Position numbers and translations under genes: made by a program
Notes under the pieces: model-generated
What the model was told of the DNA's origin: nothing
Databases searched by the model: none
Seen by the model: the letters and a program-made list of their open reading frames with translations, nothing else
Shown here: piece by piece, positions 14,678 through 59,749 of the stretch
Layout: each line of letters starts with the position of its first letter
Position numbering within the stretch: the stretch's first letter is position 1
From: a bacterium
GTDB taxonomy: Bacteria > UBP15 > UBA6099
Assembly (NCBI GenBank): GCA_029564595.1
Contig: JAKQPS010000120.1
Coordinates: 16,424-80,423, forward strand
Reading direction: 5' to 3'
Length of the DNA: 64,000 bases

Positions 14678-15541
14678 TCATTGGTAGTCATGAAAATATT
14701 GATGCATTCTTTCCCTAATACTTATGCATTGCTGACACAAACCATCCGCTTGTTTTCCATCAACTTCAACTATGGCTGCTCCTGATAAAAGTATTAATGT
14801 CATCAAATCGAGCGTGTTCTTTATCGCACGGATATGCATTCTTGGAATGGGGTCTATATTCACCAGTCGAACATCTCCGCTTTCATAGATAAACAAATCA
14901 TCCGGCCCTCTTTTGCCATGTGTGATCATGCAGAAATCACGATACGATTTTTTATATTCATTTCTGAAGTGGCCAGAATTGTGCTTGGCATCGATTCTAT
15001 CGCATTCTTGTTGATAATTTAATTGATTCCCGAGCGCTTTTACTCTTTCTTTGCTGCTGGAAGTTAAATCTGCAGATTCAATTTCTCTTTCAAGTCCAGA
15101 CTTCATTTCTCCTAGTTCGTTCAGGTAGTCAGCATAATCTTTAGAGTAATATTCGTAGATTTTTTTGTGTTCATTTATCTCATTTAGTCGAAAACCAAAT
15201 GCCGCTTCTATTGGCTCATCTTTTAATATTAGAATTCGTATCCAACACTCCCATAATGTTCGAATTATTATGTATGCGGAATCAGGATATCCTGACAAAG
15301 ATATTTTTAACGCAGCAACACAATGTCTGAAAGACCTTGCTAGCACAGGAACAAGAACTTCGTCATGAATAATGCTTTTATTCGGATACTCGATTTCTGT
15401 TTTTATTATCCCAAATAGAATCTTTTCGCATTCTTCTAAAAGTTCCAAAACACCCTTAATCTGTATGATGTTCTCTTCGTGCTTGTCATTCATTGCTTTA
15501 TTAAAACGTAACCAACCCACATGTTCGTCAAGAATTTCCAT
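14678..15541 (-). CDS. Hypothetical protein in AT-rich island; possible HEPN-like Rx6H motif
   Basis: Start chosen at ATG 15541 (MEILDEH, AAGGG upstream) rather than the GTG at 15637. Strongly AT-rich codon usage unlike neighbours. RDFCMITH near C-terminus fits R-x(4-6)-H. No family recognised. Confidence 0.5.
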   Translation of the reverse strand: MEILDEHVGWLRFNKAMNDKHEENIIQIKGVLELLEECEKILFGIIKTEIEYPNKSIIHDEVLVPVLARSFRHCVAALKISLSGYPDSAYIIIRTLWECWIRILILKDEPIEAAFGFRLNEINEHKKIYEYYSKDYADYLNELGEMKSGLEREIESADLTSSSKERVKALGNQLNYQQECDRIDAKHNSGHFRNEYKKSYRDFCMITHGKRGPDDLFIYESGDVRLVNIDPIPRMHIRAIKNTLDLMTLILLSGAAIVEVDGKQADGLCQQCISIRERMHQYFHDYQ

Positions 15542-15828
15542 GTCTGAACCCTTTTTATTCAAACATTTACACATAATCAGTTTTCTGCATTTCGTCAGAA
15601 CCATATAATTCTTTCTTTCTATAACCCTCATTGCCACGCGAACACGATTCTTATTATAGCGCCGACAAATCTAATAGTAAGCTTTGCCTAATTACTCGCC
15701 CGTTAAGATTATGTGAAAAATGGCGCTGTAAACGGAGGCGGTTTCATGTTATGATTCCACGAAAGCACAACCGTCGGCGCCGGGGTCTTTTGGCAACCGG
15801 GACGCGGCGGACATCGCGGAGGCGAACC

Positions 15829-29190: not shown

Positions 29191-30027
29191 ATGAAAACCA
29201 AGATAATAACATTGTCGTCTGATGTTGTTGAAAAGGCTGATTTGCTTGAATATGAGAAAATGATTTTAGATAACAAAAACATAAGTGAGCACAATGCATC
29301 CAAATTCTTTGCCAAGTTTCCAAAGTTTCTTTCAATAGGCGGCTATAAAGAATTTGCAAGAGAAATAGTATTATCTACACCTCAAAATGAACAGATGTAT
29401 CGTGTGGATTTTTGTAGGAAGCGGTACGGCACATTGTACTGGGACATAGTTGAACTTAAAAGACCCGGGATTCAGGCATTGGTAAAGAAAGGAAAACATT
29501 GGCATTTTTCTGATGCGGTGCAGAAAGGGATAGATCAATCATATGATTACAGAAATTTGATGCATGATAAAACAAATATGGAATTAACAGAGAATAAAAC
29601 GGGAATTAGAATTTACAGACCCAAGATATTGCTAATTGCTGGCAGAAAAGATAACGATATCGGGGAAGATGAATTGATTGATTTGATAGATAAATACAAC
29701 CATTTTGAGTTTTTGACTTATGACGATCTTTTTAATAGTCATACAGAACACTATAAATCAACACTGATTGTTGTCCCCGTGTTCGAAGGCGATGACATAC
29801 CGATAGAAGATTCTGGGGTTCAACTTAAAAGACATATTCAAGAAATGCTAGTTGTGTTGACAAATAAGGAAAGACGTGTTCTCGAATTAAGGTTTGGATT
29901 GATTGACGGAATACCGCGTGATTGCGAAACGATAGCAGAATCAATGAATGAAAATCCAAGCAATATAAGAAAGATTGAATCAAAAGCTTTACGCAAGCTT
30001 AGGTTTCCTCCAACTACCAGACTTTAA
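29191..30027 (+). CDS. Two-domain protein: N-terminal Shedu/DUF4263-like PD-(D/E)xK nuclease-like domain fused to C-terminal sigma-70 region-4 HTH
   Basis: 278 aa, AT-rich codons, GGAGG before ATG. N-terminal FFAKFPKFLSIG...RVDFCRKRYGTLYWDIVELKRPG...QKGIDQSYDY fits D...E-x-K...Q nuclease signature; C-terminal LTNKERRVLELRFGLIDGIPRDCETIAESMNENPSNIRKIESKALRKLR is a near-textbook sigma-70 region 4.2. Confidence 0.6.
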   Translation: MKTKIITLSSDVVEKADLLEYEKMILDNKNISEHNASKFFAKFPKFLSIGGYKEFAREIVLSTPQNEQMYRVDFCRKRYGTLYWDIVELKRPGIQALVKKGKHWHFSDAVQKGIDQSYDYRNLMHDKTNMELTENKTGIRIYRPKILLIAGRKDNDIGEDELIDLIDKYNHFEFLTYDDLFNSHTEHYKSTLIVVPVFEGDDIPIEDSGVQLKRHIQEMLVVLTNKERRVLELRFGLIDGIPRDCETIAESMNENPSNIRKIESKALRKLRFPPTTRL

Positions 30028-30077: not shown

Positions 30078-31610
30078 TTATCGCCGGGCAGGCGATTTCT
30101 TGTCGTAAAATAGTTGCACTACTTTTTCCATTCGGGAAATTTCATTATCCGAAAGAGCCTCGAAATGGCTTGCTCGTTTCCGCCCTGAGAGTCTGCCATT
30201 GTTTTGCAGACAAAAGCGGATGAAAATGTCGATTTGCCTGTCGGGCATATCCACAATCTCCTGTATAGCTTTCTTGGTTTCATCGTAATTTGCTAGGAAT
30301 AACAATTCACCCGCCAGTTCAGTATCAATAGTCTTCTCAATGAACAGAAACAGCGCTTCTGCTTGCGGAGTCATATCAATATAGCGGTACCATTTAACCG
30401 TATCATTATGGACGGTCATACGGCCATCTTCATCAAGAGAGTATTCCACTAATGGCATTAGACGCTTTGAAAACGATTCCAAAGAAGCATCATAGTCGGC
30501 GGGATTCTTCAACATGGATGCCGACACCGGGAACATGATGCCTTCGGGTGTAAAACCGCGGCGAGCAAGAATGTTATGGATCAGAAACCGGTGAATTCTA
30601 CCATTGCCATCCTCGAACGGATGCAGAAAAACAAATCCATATGAAACGACGGCGGCGTGAATCACGGCGGGAACATTGCCCTCGTCCATGAACTTGAAGG
30701 AAATCTCTAAGCCTTCCATAAGGTCAGGCAGATTTTCAGGTTTTGGACATGCGAAGTGTATCTTTTCATTTTGCCAAGCGACCGACTCCCCCACATAATT
30801 CTGTGTGCGCCGGTAGTCGGAATCACGGAACCGCGCATCGACAATGCGATTCTGAAGCTCTATCAAACTCTTTTTATCATAAAAATCTTTTTGCTCCGCC
30901 AGTTGAAGCAGAGAAACAAATCTTTCCGTCTTATTTGAAGTGGGATTGATGTGTTCTATCTCGAAGGAAGATTTAGTTTCTTTGGCGTAGAGATAACCAA
31001 GAGCGCGCTTTAGCATTTCCGGAGGATAGGCTGATACAACTTGGCGGCATCTATCGGGAAGGTTTGTTTTTTCGAAGTCGCGAAGGATATCTGTGCGACG
31101 AACCGAAGGACAGAACTGGTGATTTCCCAATAAATTATCATTGATTCGTTGGCGACGGACTATGCGGGCTGGAGAAACCGTATAGTATTCTGATGATTCT
31201 AGCAGATCGACATAGTTGCCCCTCTTCAAGTCGGCTAACGGGAGTTTTTTGCCTGTGAGAAACTCGTATAGGAACCATAGTCGCCTTACGTACTTGCCAC
31301 TAGGTTTGGACTGCGCATATTCGAGAAAATCTTTTTCTTCTATTTCTTGAAATAAACTGGCTAGTATCGCAAGGTTCGTGCCGTCATACTTAAGCGCGAA
31401 TTCAAGATGATCTCCCAGCATATCCCCGGGCCAATACTTAAGCGGAAAAACTTCCTCAATCACGCCGCCGGAAGAATCAACTTGATGTATTCCGGAGTTA
31501 ATGACAAAGGAAATATGCCAATTTGGGATGACATCAAGGTCGTACCGCTCGACAAGCGCCGCATATCCTGCGGGTCTGCGGGTCGATTCGTCTTTGTCTT
31601 TTTCAGACAT
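30078..31610 (-). CDS. Fic family protein (AMPylation/phosphocholination-type Fic/Doc enzyme)
   Basis: Start at ATG 31610 (MSEKDKDES) behind GGAGG; canonical Fic motif HPFEDGNGRIHR; SFEIEH segment about 100 aa upstream could be an inhibitory-helix-like motif. ORF-track start 31664 lacks RBS. Confidence 0.85.
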   Translation of the reverse strand: MSEKDKDESTRRPAGYAALVERYDLDVIPNWHISFVINSGIHQVDSSGGVIEEVFPLKYWPGDMLGDHLEFALKYDGTNLAILASLFQEIEEKDFLEYAQSKPSGKYVRRLWFLYEFLTGKKLPLADLKRGNYVDLLESSEYYTVSPARIVRRQRINDNLLGNHQFCPSVRRTDILRDFEKTNLPDRCRQVVSAYPPEMLKRALGYLYAKETKSSFEIEHINPTSNKTERFVSLLQLAEQKDFYDKKSLIELQNRIVDARFRDSDYRRTQNYVGESVAWQNEKIHFACPKPENLPDLMEGLEISFKFMDEGNVPAVIHAAVVSYGFVFLHPFEDGNGRIHRFLIHNILARRGFTPEGIMFPVSASMLKNPADYDASLESFSKRLMPLVEYSLDEDGRMTVHNDTVKWYRYIDMTPQAEALFLFIEKTIDTELAGELLFLANYDETKKAIQEIVDMPDRQIDIFIRFCLQNNGRLSGRKRASHFEALSDNEISRMEKVVQLFYDKKSPARR

Positions 31611-31619
31611 GACTTCCTC

Positions 31620-31811
31620 CAGAAAAACGCTTACAACACGAGAATTATAGTTATATTTTAGCATGTGGCAAGAAAAACAGTTACGGCGGCAAATGCTGTA
31701 AGCTTCTTAGTCTGACAAGAAAAACGCTTACAAGGCAAGAAAAACGCTTACATAACAGCCTGCGACAAGAAAAACGCTTACAACGCGGCCTGTGGCAAGA
31801 AAAACAGTTAT
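31620..31811 (+). repeat. Array of six direct repeats CAAGAAAAAC(G/A)(C/G)TTAC (iteron-like) upstream of the Fic gene
   Basis: Copies at 31620, 31669, 31717, 31736, 31766, 31796 read directly; first copy degenerate; spacings 19-48 bp. Confidence 0.8.
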
Positions 31812-33604: not shown

Positions 33605-35755
33605 CTAGATGACGCCGTCTTCGGCGAGAGCGTAGAGGACGAGTTTCTGGATGATTTTCTCTTTGCGGTCGGCGGGAGAATCCAGTTTCATGCGCTCTAG
33701 GTAAGGACGCGCGGCGGCGGGCGGCCTGAATGTTTTGCCTATCGCGGCTCCGGTCGGCCGGAACCCTTTTGGGGTCAGCCTCGCCTTCAGCCCGCGAAGC
33801 GCTTTTGCAAGCCCAAGCTCTTCCTTGGTCAGTTCCGTTCCGTACGGGAATGTGGGGAACAGGCCCTCTTTGATGAAAGGCTTGGCGAGGTTCGCCACTG
33901 CCTCCGGCAGATTGCCCCTGAAAGCCAGCGGTATCTGGTAGTCGGCGGGAACTTTGCTGTTCTCCTTTGCCTTTTTCAACAGCGCCTGCTGGAATCTTGA
34001 ATCTGTTATCTTGAGAATTTCTATGATTGTGTCGCGGTCGGTTTTTCCTCGGACGTCTGCGATGCCGTATTCGGTGACGAAGATGTCGCGCAGGTGGCGG
34101 GGGATGGTGAGGTTGCCGACGCTGAAGACGATGTTGGACTCCGGGCCGGAGGAGCCGGCGCGGACGCTTCGCACGACGATGATTGAGCGCGCTCCGGGAA
34201 TCTCGTGCCCCATAGACACGAAGTTAAACTGGCCGCCGACGCCGCTGATGACCTGATTATTGTCCAGCGTGTCGGAGGCGACGCCGCCGAGGACTGTAGC
34301 CATCATTGCTGTGTTGACGAAGCGGCCGTGCAGCCGTTGCAGGAGCTTCAGTTCGTCTTGTCCGGGAATCTGGTTGACGAAGCTTATCTCGCGCATCTTG
34401 ATTTCGCGGCGGCGGGCGTCGTCCATGTTCATCAACTGGTCGTAGAACCATCGAGAGCCGATGAAGAAGCCTGCGTGGATGAGAAGCCCGTTGGTTAGCT
34501 TGTCGCCAAGGCACTCGTTCACCACGCGGTTGCGGGCGACGATGTCCCGCATGTCGGCGGGAATTCTATCGCCGTTCGGCAACACTAGACAGCCGTCGTC
34601 CCACGCCACGTTGTCCTTAAAAATCCCGAACTTGCGCAGCGCGCGAAAAACTTCCTCGGTTATCCACGGGCCGATTATTCCCCGGTCGAGCAGCACGTTT
34701 ATGTTGTCGGCGGTGACTTCCTCGCCGATGACGCCTTCGTTGAGCAGGCTTTGAAGGATGGGATGATCGTAAACGCGGCGCTTGATGATGCCGCTGTCCA
34801 TGAGACGGATAAAGCCGTCGAAGATGAACTCGGAGCAGCCGTACAGCCCTTTCTCAAAAGGTTCCTCCCCGCCCACTTTCTGAATGATAGGCATGAACTT
34901 CTCGTCGACTTTCGTGTCTCTTACGATTCTTCTGTAAACATCGTTTTTCTCGTGCCGCAGTTGTAAGGCGTACACGATGGCGTCTGCCAGCGAGCCGAAG
35001 CCGACCTGAAAAGTGCCGCCGTCTTTGATGAGGGCGCTGACATGGAAACCGATGGAATAGTCGGTGACTGTTATCGGCTCTTTCGGAGGGGCGAAAATCG
35101 GGTGGTGGCCGGCGTCGCAGTCGAGTATGCCCGTGAATTCTTCAGGCGAACACTCACCGGCTCCGTACATGTAAGGCATGTTGCGGTTGACCTGAGCGAG
35201 GATGGCGACGTTGCGTCCGGCGGCTCGCGCCCGGTTCATGTCCCATAGCTGCATGACAGTGGCGTCCGCGTTGCTCCCTGTGCTGTGCTTGCCTGTTGCT
35301 GATTTTTCGGAGACCATGATAGCCATCGCGTTGCAACCGGCGGCCTCGATGTCTCTTGCGACATGCGTGTAGTTGCTGGACATGTAGCCCTGCTGCATGG
35401 CTGGTTTGCCAAGCCCGGTTCCCGGAGAAAGATAAATCTCCTGAAGGTCTACGTTGGCGGGAAGTTTCCCCGCGTGGGCGTCCCTCATGTACACCGGGTC
35501 GGGATAGCCGCCGAAGAGCCTTTCGGAGAGCGGCTGTATCAGCCTGCGCTCAATGTCGCTGTTCCATGCGGGCGTCTGCAGAGTAAGTCCGCTCATCATA
35601 GTAAGTTTGATGCTCGGATCGGCTTTCGCCCTTCTGTAGAATTCGTTCGCGATCACCGTGGGTTTGCCGACCGCTATCGGCAATCCGAGGATAATGTTTT
35701 TTCCGATGGTGGATATCGCGTCGTCCACAATTTTTTCGACGTCTTTGTAAATCAT
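33605..35755 (-). CDS. Acetyl-CoA hydrolase/transferase family protein (CoA-transferase)
   Basis: 716 aa; two-domain layout and glycine-rich segments typical of family I CoA-transferases / acetyl-CoA hydrolases (tentative family-level call). Confidence 0.7.
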   Translation of the reverse strand: MIYKDVEKIVDDAISTIGKNIILGLPIAVGKPTVIANEFYRRAKADPSIKLTMMSGLTLQTPAWNSDIERRLIQPLSERLFGGYPDPVYMRDAHAGKLPANVDLQEIYLSPGTGLGKPAMQQGYMSSNYTHVARDIEAAGCNAMAIMVSEKSATGKHSTGSNADATVMQLWDMNRARAAGRNVAILAQVNRNMPYMYGAGECSPEEFTGILDCDAGHHPIFAPPKEPITVTDYSIGFHVSALIKDGGTFQVGFGSLADAIVYALQLRHEKNDVYRRIVRDTKVDEKFMPIIQKVGGEEPFEKGLYGCSEFIFDGFIRLMDSGIIKRRVYDHPILQSLLNEGVIGEEVTADNINVLLDRGIIGPWITEEVFRALRKFGIFKDNVAWDDGCLVLPNGDRIPADMRDIVARNRVVNECLGDKLTNGLLIHAGFFIGSRWFYDQLMNMDDARRREIKMREISFVNQIPGQDELKLLQRLHGRFVNTAMMATVLGGVASDTLDNNQVISGVGGQFNFVSMGHEIPGARSIIVVRSVRAGSSGPESNIVFSVGNLTIPRHLRDIFVTEYGIADVRGKTDRDTIIEILKITDSRFQQALLKKAKENSKVPADYQIPLAFRGNLPEAVANLAKPFIKEGLFPTFPYGTELTKEELGLAKALRGLKARLTPKGFRPTGAAIGKTFRPPAAARPYLERMKLDSPADRKEKIIQKLVLYALAEDGVI

Positions 35756-42150: not shown

Positions 42151-42264
42151 AATAAAAAAAGCGGCTCGGAAATGGAGCCGCTGGAGCTTGAACCGTGTTG
42201 CGGACGGTTCAATGAGGTAGGTTGCTGAAACGGGCAAAGTCCGCGGGCTAGATAGCCCGCGGAC
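42151..42264 (-). terminator. Three consecutive hairpins 3' of the Fe-S oxidoreductase gene, the last followed by a U-run on the minus strand
   Basis: GTCCGCGGGC-TAGATA-GCCCGCGGAC (42239-42264), GAACCGT-GTTGCGG-ACGGTTC (42190-42210), GCGGCTC-GGAAATG-GAGCCGC (42161-42181) adjacent to A7 at 42151-42160. Confidence 0.55.
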
Positions 42265-42329
42265 GCTGTCCATATTCATCGTTGCCGGTTGCCGTGCGGG
42301 ACTGTTCCGCCCGCGACGGCTCTTCGAGG

Positions 42330-44489
42330 TTACTTCTCCACTTTCGCCTGTTCGGTCTGAGCAGGCGCGTCCACCACCGCGGGAGCGGCGGGTTTCACTT
42401 CGATGCCCATCGCCTGAACCACGAGTGTGGAAATATCTTTGAGTTTCAGTTTCTCTTCCATTTCAATGAGCTTTACGCCGTCTTCGATCATCTGCATGCA
42501 GTACGGGCAAGCGACCGCGATGGTGTCCGCTCCGGTGTTGGCAAGCTCTTTGGCGCGTCGGACGTTGAGCCGTTCGTCGCCGGGCACGTCGAGGTCCATG
42601 TCCATGAAGTAGTTGCCGCCGCCCGCTCCGCAGCAGAAGCTGTCCGCGCATTTGTTCTTCGGCTCGATGGCGGTCACGCCTTTGATGGACTTCACGACGC
42701 TGCGCGGCTGTTTGGTCTGTCCGGCGTACCTGCTCAGGTAGCAGGGGTCGTGATAAACCACTTTGCCAGCCACTTCTTTGGTGAGCTTTATCTTGCCCTG
42801 CTCTATCAGTTCGTTAAGGAACTGTCCGTGATGGACGACTTCGTACTTGCCGCCGAACTGGCTGAACTCGTTTTTCAGGGAGTTGAGGCAGTGGGGGCAG
42901 ATGACCACTATGCGGTTGAACTTTATTGAATTGAGTATCTCGACCTGATTCTTGGCGAGGCTCTGGAAGACATTTTCGTCGCCGAGGCAGCGGGCGGGGT
43001 CGCCACAGCATGTCTCGTTGTCGCCGAGCATCGCGAACTTCACGCCGGCGGCGCGCATGATGGCCATCATGTTTTCGGCGATGTGCTGTTTGGCTTGGTC
43101 ATAGTTTGCGACGCAGCCGAGCCAGAAGAGCACGTCTGTTTCTCCGCCCGCGTCGATGATGTCAGGCATCTCGCCTTTGATCCAGTTGAGGCGGCCCTGT
43201 TGCGGGCCGAACGGGTTGCCGCGCTGTTCGAGCGCCTTGAGGGCGTTCTTCGCGTCCGCAGGCAGCCTGCCGTTCATCATAACTTCCGAGCGGCGCACTT
43301 CGACGAGCTGGTCGATGTGCTCGATCATCGCCGGGCACACTTCCATGCAGGCGCGGCAGGTGCGGCACAGCCACAGCCCGTGTTCGTCGAGCACGTCTCC
43401 GATGAAGGGTTCGAGTTCGAGAGGCTGCTGTTCGGCGGCTCCCTCTTCGCCTTCGGCCTTGGCTCCGTCGCCGCCGGCTTTGGCTTTTTCCTGCGCTTCA
43501 TACATCTTATAGAGCGATTTCTTCAGGGACTGTACTACTTTGCGGGGCACTAACGGGTATCCGCACTGGCTGACCGGGCAGGCCTCTTCGCAGCGTCCGC
43601 ATTCGAGGCAGGCGTCCAAGTCCAGCGCGTTTTTCCATGTGAGATCTTTCGCCGTGGTATGTCCGAAATTGAACTCCTCGACATCGTCGCGGGAGAAAAG
43701 CTCTTCGAGGTCTTCCCTCTGCAGGGAGCCTTTCGGCTTGTCGTTGGAGAACATGTAGTTGGCCGGGATGAGCATGATATGGAAGAACTTGGTGTAAGGC
43801 AGAGAAGCGATGAGGGCGAAGGTGGCCAGCGCGTGAGTCCACCACACGAGCGGGTAAACCACCGGCACGGAAGCTTCGGAGAAGACGCCCATCGCTTTGG
43901 AGACGGCGAACCCGAACGGGCTGTATGCCGACCACGGATCGCCCGCGAACTGAATTCTCAGTCCTTCGAGAACGAACCCGCCGAGAGCGATGAACAGCAA
44001 CAGTCCGAGCATGTACGCGTTCTGCCAGTCGGTTTGCAGCGTCTTCGGTTTCAGAACATATCTGCGGATAATCGCAATCGCAAGGCCGACCACGAGGAAG
44101 AACCCCGCTATGTCAGCCAGAAAAGAGACCGCCAGATAGAGGTTGCCTTTGAAGAAAGTCAGCCCGAAAAGCGGTTTCGTAACGTCAATTTCGACGGTCA
44201 GTATAGCCGTTGTGATAGCCAGCATGATGAACGACCAGAAGATCATCGAGTGAAAGACGCCCGGCATGAGTTTTCTGCGAACGCGTCTTTGCATGACCGT
44301 TTCGACCGCCATTTTTACCACGCGGCCCACAACGTCGCCGAAGCGCTCGTTCGCCGGTTTCAGAGCCTTCCACTGCATGATTTTCTTGTATACCCCGTAA
44401 CCGAAAACAGCGAACGAAGTAATCATGAAAATGTACATCACCCAGTGGTGATGCACGTGCCAGTAATATTCTCTATGCGCCATATCCAT
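42330..44489 (-). CDS. Membrane-bound Fe-S oxidoreductase, heterodisulfide reductase-related (NarI-like TM domain + 4Fe-4S ferredoxin + two CCG domains)
   Basis: 719 aa; five N-terminal TM helices with His residues; CLECGRCEEACP and CRTCRACMEVCP ferredoxin motifs; CCG-type cysteine clusters (NETCCGDP, DSFCCGAGGG, CPYCMQ). Confidence 0.8.
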   Translation of the reverse strand: MDMAHREYYWHVHHHWVMYIFMITSFAVFGYGVYKKIMQWKALKPANERFGDVVGRVVKMAVETVMQRRVRRKLMPGVFHSMIFWSFIMLAITTAILTVEIDVTKPLFGLTFFKGNLYLAVSFLADIAGFFLVVGLAIAIIRRYVLKPKTLQTDWQNAYMLGLLLFIALGGFVLEGLRIQFAGDPWSAYSPFGFAVSKAMGVFSEASVPVVYPLVWWTHALATFALIASLPYTKFFHIMLIPANYMFSNDKPKGSLQREDLEELFSRDDVEEFNFGHTTAKDLTWKNALDLDACLECGRCEEACPVSQCGYPLVPRKVVQSLKKSLYKMYEAQEKAKAGGDGAKAEGEEGAAEQQPLELEPFIGDVLDEHGLWLCRTCRACMEVCPAMIEHIDQLVEVRRSEVMMNGRLPADAKNALKALEQRGNPFGPQQGRLNWIKGEMPDIIDAGGETDVLFWLGCVANYDQAKQHIAENMMAIMRAAGVKFAMLGDNETCCGDPARCLGDENVFQSLAKNQVEILNSIKFNRIVVICPHCLNSLKNEFSQFGGKYEVVHHGQFLNELIEQGKIKLTKEVAGKVVYHDPCYLSRYAGQTKQPRSVVKSIKGVTAIEPKNKCADSFCCGAGGGNYFMDMDLDVPGDERLNVRRAKELANTGADTIAVACPYCMQMIEDGVKLIEMEEKLKLKDISTLVVQAMGIEVKPAAPAVVDAPAQTEQAKVEK

Positions 44490-44570
44490 TTTTGATGTCC
44501 CTCCCCGGATGAGTTTTTTTATGGACAGGCCGCCCTTGCGGGCGGCCCATGTTCTGTGTTGTCCGTCCCC

Positions 44571-45001
44571 TTACTTTTTCACGCCGACCGGCTTCTCCAC
44601 ATCTATCGCCTTTCGGGTCGCCGCGTACGTCTGCGAACCCGACTTGCCGTACCAGAACCTCGTGAACTGGCTGGTCACGTCGAAGCAGGTTGTCGCCGCT
44701 TCAAGCTTCAGCCCCTTGCTGTCCAGCGCTTTCATGAACGGGGACACCACTGCCCGCGTCCTGCCGAGGCTCCACACGCATTCCACCAGCGCCACTTCCG
44801 CGTCGCTTGCCTCTTCGAGCATCTTTTTGATCCCCGGGCGGTCCATCACCTTTTCGCATTCGTCAACGTCCTCGTACATCGCCACTATCTCGATTCCGTT
44901 GGCTTCCGCGTATGCTTCGATCCTTTTCTTCTGTTCCCCTCTGTCCACCACGTTGCCTTCGTTGTCTACGTACATTCCGCTCGCGTATCCGATCGCTTTC
45001 A
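44571..45001 (-). CDS. Small protein with resolvase-catalytic-domain-like pattern lacking the catalytic serine
   Basis: Start at ATG 45001 with GGAGG 8 nt upstream; MKAIGYASGMYVDNEG...EIVAMYEDVDECEKVMDRPGIKKML resembles serine-recombinase N-terminal domain layout but has no YxRVSTxxQ serine and no HTH. Confidence 0.5.
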
Positions 45002-45233
45002 TTGTCTTTGCCTCCTCTCTATTTTCACTGTTGTTTTTATTTATCTTTTCCATCTTTTTCACCCCTTTCGGCTTCCTTCAGCCTGCGCCTATTAATATAT
45101 CAAGCCCAGCGCCAAGCCCGATGCCAGCTCAGCAATACAACAAATTGTCCTTCTTACAAAGGCATTTTTATTTTGAATTATTTTTTCGCCTGAATTTGCG
45201 CATCGGATTTTTACATCAGGCGCATATAAAACA

Positions 45234-45433
45234 TATTCACCCTCCGGCCCTTCTTGAGAAATAAATCACAATCTACTATGAGATTTGGTGAATGTGTTTT
45301 CTATTCACCCTCCATGCGTTTTTCAGAATCCATAGCTTCTTCATCTGCCGCATACAAATTTTTTCTTTTATTTACTAGGTGTTTTTTCAGTTTTCTCCCT
45401 TCCATCGCACGGTGAATAAAAATTTTATTCACC
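45234..45433. promoter_or_regulatory. Operator-like array: two GGTGAAT-N9-ATTCACC inverted repeats plus duplicated half-site TATTCACCCTCC
   Basis: Read directly at 45287-45309 and 45411-45433; 12-mer at 45234-45245 and 45302-45313; in AT-rich divergent intergenic region. Confidence 0.5.
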
Positions 45434-45625
45434 TGCATTTCTAATCCCCCAGTTTTGCTGTGGTTTTCCACGTTTTTGAGGAACAAACCTTAAATCAAGT
45501 GGATTTTTCGGTTTACAGGTTCGCCTTTTCATTTTGATGGAAAACAACTGCCACAGATTTTGTTATACAGAGATATATGTATATAATTGACTTACTTTAA
45601 AGATGCTAAGCGGAGGAGACGAACG

Positions 45626-46267
45626 ATGTCTGCGGCGTTAAAGAAAAAAGCAATGGCGATAGCGGAGTATCTACAGGCCAACTACGACGACGCGACCACC
45701 TCGCTCGACTACTCCAAACCGCACGAACTGCTCGTGGCGACCATTCTTTCGGCTCAATGCACGGACGAACGCGTGAACATCGTCACCAAAGACCTGTTCA
45801 AGAAATACAGGACGGTGAAAGCGTTCGCGGACGCCGACCTCGGCGAGCTTGAGAAAGACATTCATTCGACCGGATTCTTCAAGAACAAAGCGAAGAACAT
45901 CAAAGGCTGTTGCGCGGCGATAATCGAGAAACACGGCGGCAAGGTTCCGGGGACGATGGAAGAGCTGGTGGAACTGCCCGGCGTCGGGCGCAAAACCGCC
46001 AACGTGGTGCTCGGCAACGCGTTCGGAACTCCCGGCGTGATAGTGGACACCCATGTGTCCCGCATCGCCCAGCGTTCCGGGCTTTCGAAAAACTCCGACC
46101 CCGTTAAGATTGAATTCGACATCATGGAACTTATCCCTCAGAAGATGTGGACGGATTTCTCCAACCAGCTTGTGTGGCACGGCAGGAGAATCTGCGACGC
46201 GAGAAAACCCAAGTGCGGCGAATGCGGCATGATAAAACACTGCGACTTCGGCAAGAAATCACAGTAG
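45626..46267 (+). CDS. nth: Endonuclease III (DNA glycosylase/AP lyase)
   Basis: Start at ATG 45626 behind GGAGGA; HhH-GPD motif LVELPGVGRKTANVVL, catalytic Lys context, [4Fe-4S] cluster C-x6-C-x2-C-x5-C (CDARKPKCGECGMIKHC). Confidence 0.9.
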   Translation: MSAALKKKAMAIAEYLQANYDDATTSLDYSKPHELLVATILSAQCTDERVNIVTKDLFKKYRTVKAFADADLGELEKDIHSTGFFKNKAKNIKGCCAAIIEKHGGKVPGTMEELVELPGVGRKTANVVLGNAFGTPGVIVDTHVSRIAQRSGLSKNSDPVKIEFDIMELIPQKMWTDFSNQLVWHGRRICDARKPKCGECGMIKHCDFGKKSQ

Positions 46268-53489: not shown

Positions 53490-55193
53490 ATGATTCTGCT
53501 TAATCCGAAAAAATATGATCCGAAAAGGCTCGACCCGGCATCCGCCGAACTGATGAAGAAAACCATCGCGTTCTTCGAGGCAAAGGGCAAAAGAAAACTG
53601 AAACAGGACGACCACGAGAGAGTGTGGTACGCGGACTTTCTGGATTTCGTGAAGCAGGAAAAAGTGTTTTCGAAACTGCTTACGCCGTCCGGTTATTCCG
53701 ACGGCGACCCTGACACCCGGTGGGACAACAACCGGAACTGCGACTTCAACGAGATAACCGCCTTCTACGCCCTGCACTACTGGTACACGTGGCAGGTGAG
53801 CATTCTCGGCCTCGGCCCGATATGGATGGGCAAAAACGAAGAGGTGAAAAAGAAGACGGCGGAGCTGTTGCGCGAGGGCGGCATCTTCGCGTTCGGACTG
53901 TCCGAAAAAGAGCACGGCGCGGATATCTATTCCACGGATATGTCGCTCGCCCCGCAGGCCGACGGCACATACATTGCCAATGGGAGAAAGTATTACATCG
54001 GCAACGGAAACAAGGCGGCGCTGGTGTCCACTCTCGGCAAGATGAAGGACAGCGGCGACTTCGTGTTCTTCGTCGTCGGATCGACTCACGGCAAGTACGA
54101 ATGCGTGCGCAATCTGGTGAACACTCAGTCTTACGTCGCCGAGTACGCTCTGAACGACTACCCGATATATGAATACGACATCCTCACGAAGGGACAGGAG
54201 GCGTGGGACTCCGCGCTGAACACCATAAACGTTGGGAAATACAATCTCGGATGGGCGTCGATCGGCATATGCACGCACTCGATTTACGAGGCGATAGACC
54301 ACGCGTCGAACAGGGTGCTGTACGGCAAACACGTGACGGACTTCCCGCACATCAGGCAGCTAATGACTGACGCGTACTGCCGATTGGTCGCGATGAAACT
54401 GTTCGCGCTGCGCGCGTCTGACTACATGAGGGCGGCGGGGCCGGACGACAGGCGCTATCTGCTGTACAACCCGATGGTGAAGATGAAAGTGACCACGCAG
54501 GGCGAGGAAGTCATCAACCTGTTGTGGGACGTGATAGCGGCGCGCGGGTTCGAGAAGGAAACGTATTTCGAGATGGCGGCGCGAGACATCCGCGCGCTCC
54601 CCAAACTCGAAGGAACTGTTCATGTGAACATGGCCCTCATCATCAAATTCATGCGCAACTATTTCTTCATGCCCGGCAAATTCCCCGAACTAGGCGTGAA
54701 AACAGACCCGGCGAACGACGACTTCCTGTTCAATCAGGGACCGACGCGCGGACTGGGCAAAATCCAGTTCCACGACTACAACATCGCGTACAACAGCGTT
54801 GACTTGCCGAACGTCAACCTCTTCAAAGAGCAAATAAACGTCCTCAAGGAATTCCTCATGACCGCCACCCCCACAGAGGAGCAGGCCAAGGACATCGATT
54901 TCCTGCTCGTGCTCGGCGAACTATTCACGCTTGTGGCATACGGGCAGCTTATCATCGAGAACTCCGCGATAATGAATGTCGAGGACGCGCTGCTCGACCA
55001 GATATTCGACTTCTTCGTCCGCGACTTCTCCAAATTCGCGCTGCAACTTTACTCGAAGACGGGCAGCACGGAGAAGCAGATGGGCCTGTGCCTGAAGATG
55101 ATCCGCAAACCTGTCCCGAACCCGGAAAGATTCAACAAGATATGGAACGAGCACGTCTTCGCCCTCAAAGGCGCTTACACCATGAGCGACTGA
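53490..55193 (+). CDS. Acyl-CoA dehydrogenase family protein
   Basis: 567 aa; overall three-domain ACAD-like layout (tentative family-level call from pattern, not a motif match). Confidence 0.65.
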   Translation: MILLNPKKYDPKRLDPASAELMKKTIAFFEAKGKRKLKQDDHERVWYADFLDFVKQEKVFSKLLTPSGYSDGDPDTRWDNNRNCDFNEITAFYALHYWYTWQVSILGLGPIWMGKNEEVKKKTAELLREGGIFAFGLSEKEHGADIYSTDMSLAPQADGTYIANGRKYYIGNGNKAALVSTLGKMKDSGDFVFFVVGSTHGKYECVRNLVNTQSYVAEYALNDYPIYEYDILTKGQEAWDSALNTINVGKYNLGWASIGICTHSIYEAIDHASNRVLYGKHVTDFPHIRQLMTDAYCRLVAMKLFALRASDYMRAAGPDDRRYLLYNPMVKMKVTTQGEEVINLLWDVIAARGFEKETYFEMAARDIRALPKLEGTVHVNMALIIKFMRNYFFMPGKFPELGVKTDPANDDFLFNQGPTRGLGKIQFHDYNIAYNSVDLPNVNLFKEQINVLKEFLMTATPTEEQAKDIDFLLVLGELFTLVAYGQLIIENSAIMNVEDALLDQIFDFFVRDFSKFALQLYSKTGSTEKQMGLCLKMIRKPVPNPERFNKIWNEHVFALKGAYTMSD

Positions 55194-55457: not shown

Positions 55458-57365
55458 TCAAAGTTTTTTTGATTCCTTTTTCGCCAGCCGCAAAGACATC
55501 ATAATGACAACAATGACGCCTCCTATTAGCGCAATCCAAATAATAATTTCTTTTCCCAAAGGTCGGTCGTCCTTTTCATCGCATGCGTCTCCTATTCCAT
55601 CTTTGTCTTTATCAGGTTGCACGGATTTGCCATATTGCTGTCGCTTGGGATTGCTGACTAATGGACAATTGTCAAGCGCATTTAGAACGCCGTCATTATC
55701 CCAGTCTTCGCATGCGTCTCCAACGCCGTCATTGTTCCTGTCCTTCTGATCATTGTTAGGAATGTCCGGGCAATTATCATTGACATCCAACACGCCATCA
55801 TTGTCGCTATCCTCGCAAATATCGCCGATGTCGTTAAGATTAACATCGCGCTGATCAGGATTTTTCATGCTAGGACAGTTGTCGCAAGCATCTCCGACAC
55901 CGTCATTGTCGGAATCGCGCTGATCAGGATTCTTTTTCTTCACGCAATTATCCTTGAAGTTCTGCGCATCATCATTGTCGTCGTCATCGCAAGCGTCTCC
56001 CACGCCATCGTTGTTTTTGTCTTCTTGTTGAGGATTATAACCATGAATACAGTTGTCGCATGCGTCGCCAATGCCGTCCCGGTCGGTGTCCCGCTGATCT
56101 GCATTCGGCTTGTTTCGGCAGTTGTCAACCGCTGTCGGAATGCCATCATTGTCCATGTCTTCGCAAGCGTCGCCGACGCCGTTGCGGTCTTTGTCCTGCT
56201 GTCTCGGATTCCTAACAGATGGACAATTATCCTTGCTGTTTATGATGCCGTCAAAATCATGATCGTCGCAAACATCGCCAATTCCATTTGAATCTGAGTC
56301 CATTTGGTCAGGATTTGCCATATCCAGACAGTTGTCACAAGCATCGCCAACCCCATCCCGGTCAACGTCCTCTTGGCTCGCATTAGGAACATCCGGACAG
56401 TTATCACATGCGTCTCCTACGCCGTCGCGATCAGAATCCTTCTGATCTGGATTGCTATTAAGAGGACAATTATCATATTTTGTTATCTTATCTCGATCCG
56501 GGTCTTCATTATATTCTGGATTCGGCTTCTCTCTTCCGAGCTTCACCTGCGGCATGTTCTTCCAGACGCGTAAACCGCGCGTATTAGATTTCGTATTTGA
56601 GCTTTTAATGTTCCCGTAATATATCTGATACTTTTTTCCCTCTTTTATATCGAACACAGCGCCAATTTCGGACGGCCCGAATATTCGCATTTCTCTTATT
56701 GCGATACCGCCGCCATGTTCAAATGCGAAACGGATAAATCGCTTTATAACAGGCGGATATGGGATTTCAAGATTCAAAGGCTCGTCCGCATCGTATTTCA
56801 CATTCTGCAAATACGTCCATTGGACGCCGTCATTGCTCCCGCTGATAATCAGTTTCTTAAATGTGAATGCATCGTCATGCAAATGTATCTCAGCAAACCC
56901 TGTGAGCGTAGGCTGGCCGAAATCAAAAGTCAGGGTCGTATGCCTAGGGTCTTTTTCAGGATCGCTCTGGTAGTAACTGCCCTCTTTGCCGGAAACATCT
57001 CCGTCTGTTAAATTGCGCGACCCGTACGAGGCGCCGCGGAATGGGGACCGCTCTGAAGTCGCTTTTATTCCTGATGCTCTTGAGGCGACATCCATTCTGT
57101 CATTCTTTACCAGCATATACGGTATTTCCTTTCCTGATTCGGCGATTCGCAAATCCCGCTGGTCCGGCAGCATTTTCTGAAGCGCTTCTTCGTCGAGGCG
57201 CAACAACGCCTCGCCTTGCGCGCTTCCCGTCGACACGTCTCGCATATATGGATACGCGGAAAACGTTTCAGCCTCGCCCGCCTTTGCGGTAATGGCAATG
57301 ATCGACACAAGCGCAAAGATATACATACTTAACCTTGTCACTGCCTTCTCTATATCAGTCGTCAT
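55458..57365 (-). CDS. Thrombospondin type-3 repeat protein with N-terminal discoidin-like region and C-terminal TM anchor
   Basis: Start at ATG 57365 (GAGGAG upstream) overlapping the upstream stop (ATGA); more than ten tandem Ca-binding-type repeats (DxDxDGxGDxCDNCP); C-terminal hydrophobic [17 protein letters not shown]; lower GC than flanks. Confidence 0.75.
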
Positions 57366-59749
57366 AACAACTCCTCGATTTGTTTTCTGTATCTGTAATA
57401 TAAAAACGATGCGACAAGAAGGATCACTCCAACTCCGAACAAAGATACAACGCGATACGCCAAGTCTAGGCTTGCCATATCGCGGATAAGCGCCTTTGCC
57501 AACGAGAGCACTAAAAGACTTATGCCGACATAACGGATATATCGCGATTTTGAAACAAAACCAATGATTAAAACACATACAGCTTCCACTGCCCATGCGA
57601 TGGTAATCCAATGTCCGGAGAACACACATGCCAGCATATATGTCAGGAATATGGTTGAGCATGAGGCGTAGACGACGCCAGCTTGTTTTATTTGTTCAAA
57701 AGGCGAAGAGTATTCTCCTTTGTACAGCCGATATGCCACAATGTAATAAATCAATAATTGTGGCAAAAGCGTTTGCATCGCGATATTGCTGTTCTCTGCG
57801 ACAGAATACAAGGTTCGCATTGATAAAATCAGATGAATCGTGAATGCGGCGGCATATAACCAGTAAAGACGTCTGTTGCGCGCCACTGCCAACAGAGCGA
57901 TTCCCAGCAGACAAACGGCAAACACACTGTTTTCAAGTTTTGCGAAGACAAGATTCAATTGCATTGTCGCAAGACCCGCGCCCGCAATCGCATAAACATA
58001 TGTTTCTAGAAATTTCATGTCATATCTCTGAATCTTCATAAGCCTGTCGCTTAAAACTGCTAAAATGAAGAAGCTTGCCGCCGACACGACCAACATGACT
58101 GCTCGCAAACCTTGTTCGCCGATAAATATGAAAACGCTGCATAGAGCGGCAACCGCCACAAAACGACTGAGCCAGCGCAGGAGTTTATTATCCAAAATTA
58201 CTGAGAGATAGAATAGCATTGCGGATTCCACAGCCCAAGAAAGCGGCAACCAATTCTTTGTTAATTGAACCGGAATCGCGAGCGTGACGAAAACAGTAGC
58301 AAGAGCCAAATAGGTTTGTGACAGAGGTGTAAGTTTTTTTGACATGGCGACACGACAGAGACAAACACACAGCACGGCCATGCTGAGGGTAAACAACCCC
58401 GCGTATTCATGATATTCAGAGAAGATTTTGTGGAACAGAAATCCGAAAAAACACAACTTATTCATAACAACAATGACGACTTCCTCTAAAATCAAACCGG
58501 TTTTCGATAATTGCATCAGAAACGCACACACAGTGAATATCGTCAACAGGCATGCTAAGAATAACAGAGCCATGGCTGTTTGTCCTTCGACACTATTATT
58601 CCAAAGAAGAAACGCAATATAATTTGCCACGACCGCTCCGATGCCAAGCCCAGCTATGGAATAACGCAGGATTAGGAAAACGAGAGTCAGGTCAATAGCC
58701 AAGTAATAAATCAACGACAGGCTGCCGCTTTCCATGGTGAAAAACGGAATAAATAGATTCAATATAGCGATGGCATAGATAACACATCGACTTTCTAACG
58801 GTAAAAGCTTCTTTTCAACATTCATAGCGATGACGCGAGCGCCAAACTGCTTTTGCGCAAAAACCAAACCCATAAAAAGCCCGAAATAGCAAAACAAAAA
58901 CAACAAATTCATTAAAAGCTCGCTCGGATTATTATTGAGCCAGTTGATATGAATTATATAGGTTGCCGCTAGTCCCGCGACTCCAATTCGAAACCATCCC
59001 TTCCTGCGCGCAAGGTAAATCAAACCAACGGCAAGCACGACATTGTATAAAAGAGTAAATACGTTTATCGCGCCGCAGAGATATGCCGTTGCATATCCCA
59101 ATAGAAACGCTTCGCCGGCAAGCAGCGCGGAATCAAGCTTTATAGAATATATAATCGCGCTAGCAACGACTATAGTCAGCAATATTATGTCCATGACAAG
59201 CGAAATATGCGTGAACTCCGCGTAGAAATGATGCGCCGCATAAAGAGTGAAATATAGAAGAGCGAAACCGCCTCCTATCAATGTTCTGTCATAACCCTTG
59301 TACTGTTTTTTCGTTTTAAGAATATTCCCGGTTAATATAAATATCAAAGCGAGCGCGATGCCTCCAACGATGCGCGTTGTCGGCCCGATCCATTGATTGT
59401 CAATTGCGTATTTCACAAAAAAAGAGAACGCAACGACGACCAGAATAATTCCCGCGAGCCCGAACCACTTCATGCCGATTTCAGCCTCGCGGGACGTCTT
59501 TGGCGCAGGAGGCACATCCGGCGAAGACAAGGGAGAGTCGGGCGGTTCATATAGCTCATTAGCGGGCTTTTTTGCCTCTTGCATATCCGCCGCAACGACA
59601 TCTTTGATTCTATTAATATCCGTATCAGTTTCATGCGCAACTCTCTCCCGCACTGCCTGCTCCAAATGATCAAATCGTATCCTCAACTCATCAATCTGCG
59701 TTTTGATCATTAGCATTTCTTTCTTGATCTCTTCAGGCATTTCCGCCAT
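57362..59749 (-). CDS. Large polytopic membrane protein, DUF2339-like, with N-terminal coiled coil
   Basis: 795 aa; N-terminal helical segment then about 20 hydrophobic segments; lower-GC codon usage; family assignment from memory. Confidence 0.65.

Follow-up and report, generated by a model that had tools for sequence, protein, structure and literature searches.

A conserved serine-recombinase fold lacking its nucleophile is encoded directly ahead of EMO/EtfD-family oxidoreductases in several phyla

The window examined here, a 64,000-nucleotide stretch from a UBP15 bacterium (contig JAKQPS010000120.1, positions 16,424 to 80,423), carries two consecutive genes on its minus strand. The second in order of transcription (42330..44489) encodes a 719-residue protein with NarI-like heme-b, HdrC-like and HdrB-like domains, features of the EMO/EtfD family of membrane oxidoreductases. 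The first (44571..45002), referred to as X, encodes a pseudo-recombinase with a 143-residue core form, which comprises a serine-recombinase catalytic domain and an αE-like helix. The initial annotation rightly placed both genes on the same strand; it ended the smaller ORF at 45001, one base short of 45002, and gave the gap as 80 nt. The intergenic spacer (44490..44570, minus strand) is in fact 81 nt long. It contains a perfect 8-bp GC hairpin (44528-44547) with no U-run after it on the transcribed strand, and an Rfam scan of the operon and its UTRs, spacer included, returned zero matches. The X and EMO genes of the window share one reading frame, with a single stop codon between them.

The core ATG of X is preceded at 8 nt by GAGGAGG, the strong ribosome-binding site that had been reported, and the core Met is the start in most of the wider X family. 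In-frame alternatives are an ATG at 45053, which would give 160 residues, and a GTG at 45062, which would give 163; homologs are called at 160-170 residues. The possible N-terminal extension (45003..45062, minus strand) is rich in Lys, Glu and Asn and poorly conserved. Six orthologous loci keep both the upstream ATG (45053) and its GGRGTG-type Shine-Dalgarno-like site, with the extension in frame, and also keep an internal AAGGAGG Shine-Dalgarno sequence before the core ATG. The true start of X is thus ambiguous, since the upstream ATG has a conserved Shine-Dalgarno-like site of its own.

Two overlapping, degenerate σ54-type −24/−12 elements, TGGCATCGGGCTTGGC and TGGCGCTGGGCTTGAT, precede the core ATG by 96-107 nt (45099..45126, minus strand). 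Orthologous loci carry canonical elements at the same place (L001, TGGCATGGGGTTTGCA; L003, TGGCATCGGGCTTGCT; L008, TGGCACCGCTGTTGCA). The −12 region of the window copies reads TTGG or TTGA; with its GC either absent or one base out of place, the function of these elements is uncertain. No σ70-like site was found upstream of X on the minus strand. About 150 nt past the EMO stop codon, a hairpin with a T-run resembles an intrinsic terminator (42160..42182, minus strand) and likely marks the end of a two-gene X-EMO operon.

Pfam identifies Nitrate_red_gam, Fer4_8 and two CCG domains (CCG E-value 1.7e-30) in the 719-residue protein, and a hydropathy scan finds four hydrophobic segments. The closest structural reference is Mycobacterium smegmatis EtfD (PDB 9OJN_A), which aligns along its full length with an E-value of 3.2e-92 (residues 43-695 against 41-746). 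His80, His219 and His237 align with MsEtfD residues His78, His223 and His241, which correspond to the heme-b ligands described for MsEtfD and for SaEMO of Syntrophus aciditrophicus. Two CX2CX2CX3CP motifs (residues 294-305 and 375-386) would bind the two [4Fe-4S] clusters of the HdrC-like domain, and two CCG motifs (494-496 and 619-621) the noncubane cluster of the HdrB-like domain. The protein therefore has the single-chain layout of SaEMO and MsEtfD, in which the NarI-like heme-b domain is joined to an HdrC-like part carrying two [4Fe-4S] clusters and an HdrB-like part carrying two CCG motifs, and none of the three heme-binding histidines or of the cluster cysteines has been lost. The NarI-like helices, two ferredoxin motifs and CCG domains described in the initial annotation agree with the Pfam matches and motif positions. 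Its label of an "Hdr-like" enzyme is correct for the modules and imprecise for the whole; judged from these sequence comparisons, the protein is an EMO/EtfD-type ETF:menaquinone oxidoreductase homolog. HdrDE of Methanosarcina is built of homologous cofactor modules, with HdrE resembling the NarI-like domain and HdrD the fused HdrC/HdrB-like domains. However, HdrDE is made of two chains and uses methanophenazine in the reduction of CoM-S-S-CoB, whereas here the modules are fused, the host is bacterial, and NCBIfam Hdr, DsrK and TmcB models score far below their cut-offs.

EMO/EtfD genes are commonly, though not always, linked to etfBA or β-oxidation genes. No ETF genes were detected in the window, either by Pfam across 22 ORFs (30-63 kb) or by tblastn of the whole window with four ETF subunits from Niallia and Haloterrigena. 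Among about 100 related loci, etfAB genes stand next to the X-linked EMO in a single lineage, L027/L041, where they are convergent. The control EMOs of Niallia, Haloterrigena and Paraburkholderia all have etfB-etfA adjoining. An acyl-CoA dehydrogenase gene is present in the window at 53490-55193.

The X protein matches PF00239 (Resolvase) with 35.5 bits, above the Pfam gathering cut-off of 23.3. The match covers only profile positions 18-112, and hence leaves the nucleophile region unmatched. An AlphaFold2 model (pLDDT 87.9, pTM 0.81) contains the resolvase-type catalytic-domain fold and, beyond this core, only the αE-like helix, in line with the serine-recombinase pattern originally noticed in the sequence. 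The nearest relatives that possess both the catalytic Ser and a DNA-binding domain are large serine recombinases, at 22-26% identity. The N-terminus of X aligns without gaps to bona fide members of this group (TP901-1 Int, Bxb1 Int and ϕC31 Int), with which it shares a long β1-α1 loop, residues Tyr6, Gln24, Asp45, Arg55 and Arg81, and the D-x-x-S-x-x-x-R motif that caps helix E. In contrast to these enzymes, the window protein has Met at the position of Ser10 (γδ numbering) and Ser at that of Arg8. Across 110 family members, position 10 is occupied by Ile (74), Val (31), Met (4) or Thr (1), position 8 by Ser (94), Ala (7), Asn (4), Gly (2), Cys (2) or His (1), and Asp67-Arg68 is replaced by Trp followed by Ala, Ser, Cys or Thr. 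The only catalytic Arg/Asp residues retained, among those checked, are Arg71 (Arg81 in X) and Arg45 (Arg55 in X). Tyr6 is found in 109 of the 110 members, and Gln24, Arg55, Arg81 and the D-x-x-S-x-x-x-R motif are invariant. Ser8 was considered as a displaced nucleophile and rejected, because it is present in only 94 of 110 members and aligns with Arg8.

X also differs from large serine recombinases in ending about 25 residues past the catalytic core, after a helix of αE length. Neither a helix-turn-helix, nor recombinase and zinc-ribbon domains, nor any other DNA-binding domain was detected by Pfam, NCBIfam or in the AlphaFold2 model, and no transmembrane segment was detected in the protein. 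On this point the initial annotation is borne out: X has the catalytic fold of a serine recombinase but neither the nucleophile nor a domain for DNA binding. The family numbers at least 433 clusters at E ≤ 1e-10, and 53 representatives were obtained at 50% identity. Its dN/dS values of 0.08-0.33, obtained at saturated dS, together with this family size, indicate that X is not a decayed pseudogene. Where databases give its members a name, it is "recombinase family protein" or "DNA invertase Pin-like"; the former name is used in metagenome-assembled genomes (MAGs) of Thermodesulfobacteriota, Acidobacteriota, Bradymonadales and UBP15. The stand-alone protein MJ0014 of Methanocaldococcus (PDB 3LHK) also resembles resolvases and was deposited under the description of putative DNA-binding protein; it scores an E-value of only 0.19 against the X profile and falls outside the family.

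Loci were searched with an alignment subset (A3), the broad alignment (A2) being too diverse. A same-strand EMO-like gene lies directly downstream of X in 50 of the 57 nonredundant X clusters with enough sequence (88%), at a median distance of about 120 nt across nonredundant loci. The pair spans several phyla, and it recurs between differing flanks on annotated contigs of Acidobacteria, Bradymonadales and other MAGs. The pairing, whose co-occurrence across genomes had been put forward as a check, is strongly conserved. Of the two outcomes that the initial annotation said would refute it, catalytic homologs in mobile elements or a lack of conserved linkage, neither was observed. The X-linked EMOs form one clade, apart from the X-less EMOs of Niallia, Haloterrigena and Paraburkholderia, to which they are about 30% identical; they have X in front where the latter have etfB-etfA, and are usually under σ54/two-component control. 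An X-less EMO paralog at L049 falls outside the X-linked clade. We found no earlier description of the pairing in the literature or sequence libraries searched, and literature searches on inactive or exapted serine recombinases, or on resolvases with EtfD, DUF224, σ54 or Fe-S oxidoreductases, yielded nothing relevant. Distance matrices for X, EMO and the response regulator from 17 loci are all strongly correlated in a mirror-tree comparison (r = 0.89-0.96); with partial correlations of only 0.33 vs 0.27, the comparison does not discriminate between partners.

In the remaining seven clusters, X is followed by genes for Peptidase_S9-like, Flavodoxin_2 or unknown proteins, or by a convergently transcribed gene. 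Fusions of X to a receiver domain (REC-X) are found upstream of an unrelated soluble protein of 583 residues. Together, the fusions and the clusters without EMO show that the function of the X domain is not strictly tied to EMO. Tandem X genes precede EMO at L032, L090, L091 and L093, and P0011 and P0012 are fusions of two or three X domains. As a group, the REC-X fusions, the fused tandem domains and the X genes without EMO fit a module for regulatory interactions better than a structural subunit that EMO always needs.

The upstream region of X is also conserved in kind. A σ54-type −24/−12 motif is found 26-121 nt before X at 51 of 75 loci, compared with 15% of random windows. A histidine kinase and an NtrC-type (σ54) response regulator are encoded within 4.5 kb of X at 24 loci, and are absent from 13 others with enough sequence. 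The latter situation applies to the window, where a scan of the ORFs found no enhancer-binding activator or two-component system near the pair, and to its clade, as well as to L095 and L098, for example. The C-terminal motifs of X show no correlation with two-component-system adjacency.

Taken together, these results make X a probable, so far undescribed partner or regulator of EMO, and not a recombinase. The specific model we favor, tentatively and at somewhat short of even confidence, is that a catalytically dead recombinase domain has been exapted as a cytoplasmic, probably dimeric, protein-protein interaction module that binds or regulates EMO as its operon partner. X and EMO would be co-transcribed as a two-gene operon running from the promoter through X and EMO to the terminator, with the promoter being of the σ54 type and a two-component system nearby in most lineages. 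X would then attach to EMO on the cytoplasmic side, at the HdrC/HdrB-like module where electrons enter, as a partner for regulation or docking that might, for example, gate or organize the access of electron donors. It is probably not an electron carrier, as it has no cofactor-binding motif. Physical contact between the two proteins is inferred, and tandem X genes and fused X domains hint at dimerization. A regulatory rather than structural role is likewise deduced; because X is typically the first gene of a σ54-type operon located by a two-component system, regulation is at least as well indicated as a structural function. Against the partner model, purified SaEMO and MsEtfD work with ETF as single polypeptides in the absence of X, and no accessory protein has been reported for either. 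The seven clusters without EMO, the REC-X fusions, the degenerate σ54 element of the window and its lack of an adjoining two-component system also do not favor the model. The interpretation in the initial annotation is partly supported: the fold and the pairing hold, and the role of X as an accessory subunit is putative.

The same promoter context is accommodated by a fairly unlikely alternative, in which X is chiefly a feedback or connector regulator of the σ54 circuit itself. Here, X, as the promoter-proximal product of the operon, would adjust transcription by binding the kinase or the NtrC-type activator, perhaps switching to EMO according to redox or quinone state, and EMO would be the usual cargo rather than an obligate target. 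The σ54-type promoters and the kinase-regulator pairs agree with this scheme, and the σ54/two-component context persists with cargo other than EMO. At L057, a triple X is followed by an S9-like hydrolase; at L102, genes for a histidine kinase and a response regulator are followed by REC-X, preceded by TGGCATGTTTTTTGC, and then by the 583-residue protein. L016 fits as well. The receiver-domain fusion indicates that X can be the output module of a phosphorelay, and the Ala-Ala C-terminus, invariably present in one subfamily, resembles a ClpXP-type degron, which, if it acts as one, would suit a short-lived regulator. PspA-PspF offers an analogy, in regulatory logic only: like PspA, X is the first gene of a σ54-dependent operon, often divergent from the activator gene, and is found beside a membrane-associated function. 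The folds of PspA and X are unrelated, however, and binding of X to an AAA+ activator is putative and without precedent. Many loci, including the window and its clade, have no adjoining activator, and adjacency to EMO is more pervasive than adjacency to a two-component system. Moreover, many operons of these phyla are under σ54 control, and the association could reflect taxonomy. A related and rather unlikely scheme combines both partners: X would be a new signaling or partner-switching module that senses or gates the state of EMO (quinone pool or ETF load), relays it to the σ54 activator in the manner of PspA, and has been reused as a receiver-controlled output in REC-X.

It is improbable that the X-linked EMO subfamily uses X as a dedicated factor for its assembly or stability, acting for instance in noncubane Fe-S or heme insertion or in membrane targeting and remaining outside the mature enzyme. 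The X-first gene order and tight linkage are typical of dedicated chaperones, and X itself lacks any cofactor motif, with Cys109 its single well-conserved Cys. Nevertheless, the noncubane domain of SaEMO is reported to be produced in E. coli with high cluster occupancy and to need no auxiliary assembly genes, X-less EMOs are widespread, and X also exists without EMO and in REC fusions.

A continued action on DNA is quite improbable as well. X could be an architectural protein or repressor that contacts the promoter through its phosphate-binding residues and αE, or it could form dominant-negative heterodimers with active serine recombinases. Tyr6, Gln24, Asp45, Arg55 and Arg81 of the scissile-phosphate pocket are retained along with the αE N-cap motif, and the family has a median pI of 8.7; the window protein is acidic, however, with a pI of 5.35. 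Serine recombinases owe their DNA affinity mainly to the DNA-binding domain, which X does not have, and its conserved partner is a redox enzyme. In the window, no recombinase genes lie near X, and inverted, res or att repeats flanking it occur only at chance level.

The wider locus likewise gives no sign of a mobile element. X is chromosomal, the neighbors of the pair are housekeeping genes, and PADLOC returned zero hits for X and EMO. A plasmid collection contains no close homolog of X, and phage matches are confined to weak, distant integrases. These results, with the missing nucleophile and DNA-binding domain, uphold the initial view that X is unlikely to be a recombinase, as does the finding that relatives bearing the Ser and a DNA-binding domain are only distantly related. 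The nth-X-EMO block, which ends at 42151, is 95% identical in nucleotide sequence to contigs of related MAGs whose flanks differ. That X is a decaying pseudogene or mobile-element remnant lying beside the oxidoreductase by chance, as its database names, the weak integrase matches and this block might suggest, is exceedingly improbable and already contradicted by the linkage kept across phyla, the strong purifying selection on X, the invariant noncatalytic motifs of hundreds of conserved members, and the absence of plasmid homologs and of inverted repeats above chance.

EMO/EtfD links fatty-acid β-oxidation to the quinone pool, is central to syntrophic methane formation, and has been proposed as a tuberculosis drug target. 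The first structures of these enzymes appeared only in 2025-2026 and depict a single-polypeptide enzyme with no auxiliary genes. We find a clade of EMO homologs in which the gene nearly always follows one for a conserved dead recombinase-fold protein; its members come from uncultured anaerobes of several phyla. The clusters that match the X profile, at least 433 in number and bearing recombinase or invertase names where a name is given, are probably misannotated, and mobile-element genes in MAGs could be overcounted as a result. If the favored reading of X as a partner of EMO is true, it would provide a clear case of a fold from a mobile-element enzyme recruited to a function that does not involve DNA. 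If X binds or regulates EMO, it would be an unrecognized component of the EMO electron-transfer step; if it relays the state of EMO, the enzyme that joins β-oxidation to the respiratory chain in anaerobes would be subject to a further level of regulation.

X, a small resolvase-like protein of 143 aa in its core form, is encoded on the minus strand at 45002-44571. Pfam PF00239 matches it above the cut-off, solely from profile position 18 onward, and a profile of its close homologues gives weak PDB matches to Gin, Hin and gamma-delta resolvase. AlphaFold2 confidence is confined to the core with an 11-sequence alignment, and the matches listed by Foldseek are serine-recombinase catalytic domains throughout; the 110-sequence alignment yields a model with pLDDT 87.9 and pTM 0.81. 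The N-terminus aligns gap-free (MAFFT) with that of bona fide large serine recombinases (MKAALYTRVSTDIQAEEGFSLDAQ versus MKAIGYASGMYVDNEGNVVDRGEQ). Met occupies the nucleophile position of the window protein; across the family (n = 110) this residue is Ile (74), Val (31), Met (4) or Thr (1), while Ser, Ala, Asn, Gly, Cys or His takes the place of Arg8 and Trp-(Ala/Ser/Cys/Thr) that of Asp67-Arg68. Gln24, Arg55, Arg81 and the D108-x-x-S111-x-x-x-R115 motif capping the N-terminus of helix E are invariant in these sequences, and Tyr6 is retained by 109 of the 110. The chain stops after a helix of αE length; Pfam, NCBIfam and the AlphaFold2 model reveal no HTH, recombinase or zinc-ribbon domain, and no TM segment is detected. 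With its nucleophile and other catalytic residues replaced and its chain ending without a DNA-binding domain, X fails the defining tests of a functional recombinase.

A word-indexed search with X recovers only 10 close clusters. Searching 1.84 billion representatives with a profile returns 53 at E ≤ 1e-10, and a second profile built from the hits extends the family to 433 clusters at the same threshold. The names they bear are "recombinase family protein", "DNA invertase Pin-like" or "hypothetical", and Pfam and NCBIfam offer no model specific to the family. The clusters come from MAGs of Thermodesulfobacteriota/Deltaproteobacteria, Acidobacteria and Bradymonadales, and contigs of bacterium ADurb.Bin236 and UBP15_UBA6099 match the window. 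No homologue is present at E ≤ 1e-3 among 72,556 plasmids, the sole phage match is a distant integrase, PADLOC gives no match, and no inverted repeats flank the gene. Six orthologues compared in pairs give dN/dS values of 0.08-0.33, with dS saturated. The main family ends in a conserved [RK][RK]P-x-x-L-x-F peptide; instead, in every member of the P0028-like subfamily (L078-L094) a basic helix leads into a terminal Ala-Ala, an ending similar to a ClpXP-type C-terminal degron.

The 719-aa protein encoded 81 nt after X (44489-42330, minus strand) is, by sequence, a homologue of the EMO/EtfD family of ETF:(methyl)menaquinone oxidoreductases. Residues 43-695 align with M. smegmatis EtfD (MsEtfD; PDB 9OJN_A, E = 3.2e-92), and in the alignment His80, His219 and His237 coincide with the published heme ligands of MsEtfD and of the Syntrophus aciditrophicus enzyme (SaEMO). 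The protein carries two CX2CX2CX3CP motifs (294-305 and 375-386) and two CCG domains, and falls far below the cut-offs of the NCBIfam TfrB, LdhH, TmcB, GlpC, DsrK, QmoC and Hdr models. Published structures show EMO/EtfD as one polypeptide with ETF as its electron donor, and that work reports neither accessory proteins nor genes dedicated to its assembly. Homologues from Niallia (Bacillota), Haloterrigena (Archaea) and Paraburkholderia adjoin etfB-etfA and have no X.

The pairing of X with EMO is widespread. Within the close clade it is found on every contig long enough, with varying flanks. A metagenome scan with a broad X profile gives 80 loci, and in almost all of them tblastn with the window EMO places an EMO-like gene (35-47% identity) directly 3' of X on the same strand. 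When X is collapsed at 90% identity and at least 700 nt of downstream sequence are required, 50 of 57 clusters are linked (median gap ~120 nt). Annotated contigs of Acidobacteria, Bradymonadales and another MAG hold the pair in unrelated neighborhoods, and four loci (L032, L090, L091, L093) have two tandem X genes ahead of EMO. In a neighbor-joining tree all X-linked EMOs fall in one clade; the Niallia, Haloterrigena and Paraburkholderia controls and an X-less paralogue from locus L049 lie outside it. This second L049 copy (L049:3320-5335) shares a contig with the X-linked one but is nearer to the etfBA-linked Niallia EMO (39.6% identity) than to that neighbor. ETF genes adjoin an X-linked EMO in one lineage only (L027/L041, convergent orientation), which suggests that the clade still works with ETF.

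Seven of the 57 clusters lack a downstream EMO gene. In L057, three fused X domains precede a Peptidase_S9-like gene; in L088 two X genes precede a Flavodoxin_2 gene; in L016 X is followed by two unknown proteins; and in L030 and L081 the downstream gene is convergent. Polypeptides in which Ala/Pro-rich linkers connect two or three X domains in tandem occur in L056/L057:2492-4000, P0011 and P0012. One subfamily (P0015, P0271, P0272) fuses a receiver domain to X (REC-X); its gene comes after those of a histidine kinase and a sigma-54 response regulator, with a -24/-12 site of its own. At L102:10001-12712 and L103:498-3201, REC-X (~300 aa; TGGCATGTTTTTTGC site 47 nt ahead of the start) precedes an unrelated, conserved 583-aa soluble protein that has no Pfam match. 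The EMO-less clusters and these fusions indicate that X is a portable module rather than a structural part that EMO always requires.

The initial annotation correctly placed both ORFs on one strand and ended the span at 45001, one base short of the first base of X. GAGGAGG lies 8 nt 5' of the core ATG, and in-frame starts at 45053 (ATG, 160 aa) and 45062 (GTG, 163 aa) lie upstream; homologues are called at 160-170 aa. In six orthologous loci the upstream and core ATGs each have a conserved Shine-Dalgarno-like site, and the intervening K/E/N-rich extension is in frame throughout. Since the upstream ATG is conserved in orthologues, yet the core Met is the first residue in most of the wider family, the start in the window clade is ambiguous. 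The paired starts (45003-45062 in the window; upstream of X in L001, L003, L007, L008 and L014) suggest either that X is made in two forms (160 and 143 aa) or that the N-terminal extension is specific to this lineage. X and EMO share one reading frame in the window, with a single stop codon between them. Their spacer contains a perfect 8-bp GC hairpin (44528-44547; GGCCGCCC-TTGC-GGGCGGCC on the plus strand), which has no U-run after it on the transcribed strand and might influence how the mRNA is processed, how stable it is or how far the two genes differ in expression. The probable operon terminator is a hairpin with a T-run at 42182-42160. Rfam gives no match over the operon.

The block of terminator, EMO, X and endonuclease III (nth) at 42151-45440 and 45576-46258 is 93-97% identical in nucleotides to contigs of related MAGs and metagenomes (L009, L010, L011, L100, L101), and the sequence past either end of it is unrelated. 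On those contigs pyrR/pyrB/pyrC lie downstream and an Fe-ADH gene lies upstream; the window has alkaline phosphatase and methyltransferase genes. Rearrangement, block transfer or chimeric assembly could account for the difference.

No ETF gene was found among 22 window ORFs scanned with Pfam or in a whole-window tblastn. An acyl-CoA dehydrogenase-like gene (53490-55193, 567 aa) and an acetyl-CoA hydrolase/transferase-like gene (33605-35755) are compatible with acyl-CoA metabolism feeding an ETF/EMO route. Elsewhere, 55458-57662 encodes a 734-aa protein with thrombospondin type 3 repeats and an F5/8 type C domain. Four ORFs (14678-15637, 29191-30027, 30078-31664, 57362-59749), including a Fic/DOC-domain gene and a DUF2339 membrane protein, have third-position GC of 0.33-0.48, far below the window norm of ~0.7, and may be foreign islands.

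Across the broad family, X usually has two close upstream neighbors, mostly divergent from it: a sensor kinase (sCache_3_3/HAMP/HisKA/HATPase_c or PilS-like) and an NtrC-type sigma-54 activator (present in 24 loci, absent from 13 with enough sequence). A -24/-12 motif (GG...GC, score ≥17) occurs 26-121 nt 5' of the core start in 51 of 75 loci, compared with 15% of random 250-nt windows. Window-clade orthologues carry canonical copies (L001, TGGCATGGGGTTTGCA; L003, TGGCATCGGGCTTGCT; L008, TGGCACCGCTGTTGCA). The window itself has two overlapping, degenerate candidate elements at 45126-45099 (TTGG/TTGA at -12), no sigma-70-like site upstream of X on its strand, and no two-component system adjoining the pair.

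The findings as a whole fit X as a non-catalytic protein-interaction module co-expressed with a specialised EMO, on which it most likely acts. Tentatively, we favor binding of X to the cytoplasmic electron-input module, where its part would be regulatory or that of a docking partner. The main rival, PspA-like feedback within the sigma-54 circuit, proposed by analogy, is less likely, though it could coexist with EMO binding. That X is an assembly factor for EMO is improbable, as published work on SaEMO needed no auxiliary assembly genes, and a residual DNA role is slightly more improbable still for a protein without a DNA-binding domain. A decaying pseudogene or mobile remnant is contradicted by purifying selection, the breadth of the family, the lack of plasmid homologues and the conserved pairing. 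Our searches of the literature found nothing on a pairing of this type; the fold and the enzyme family are each known, and it is their widely conserved association that is undescribed.
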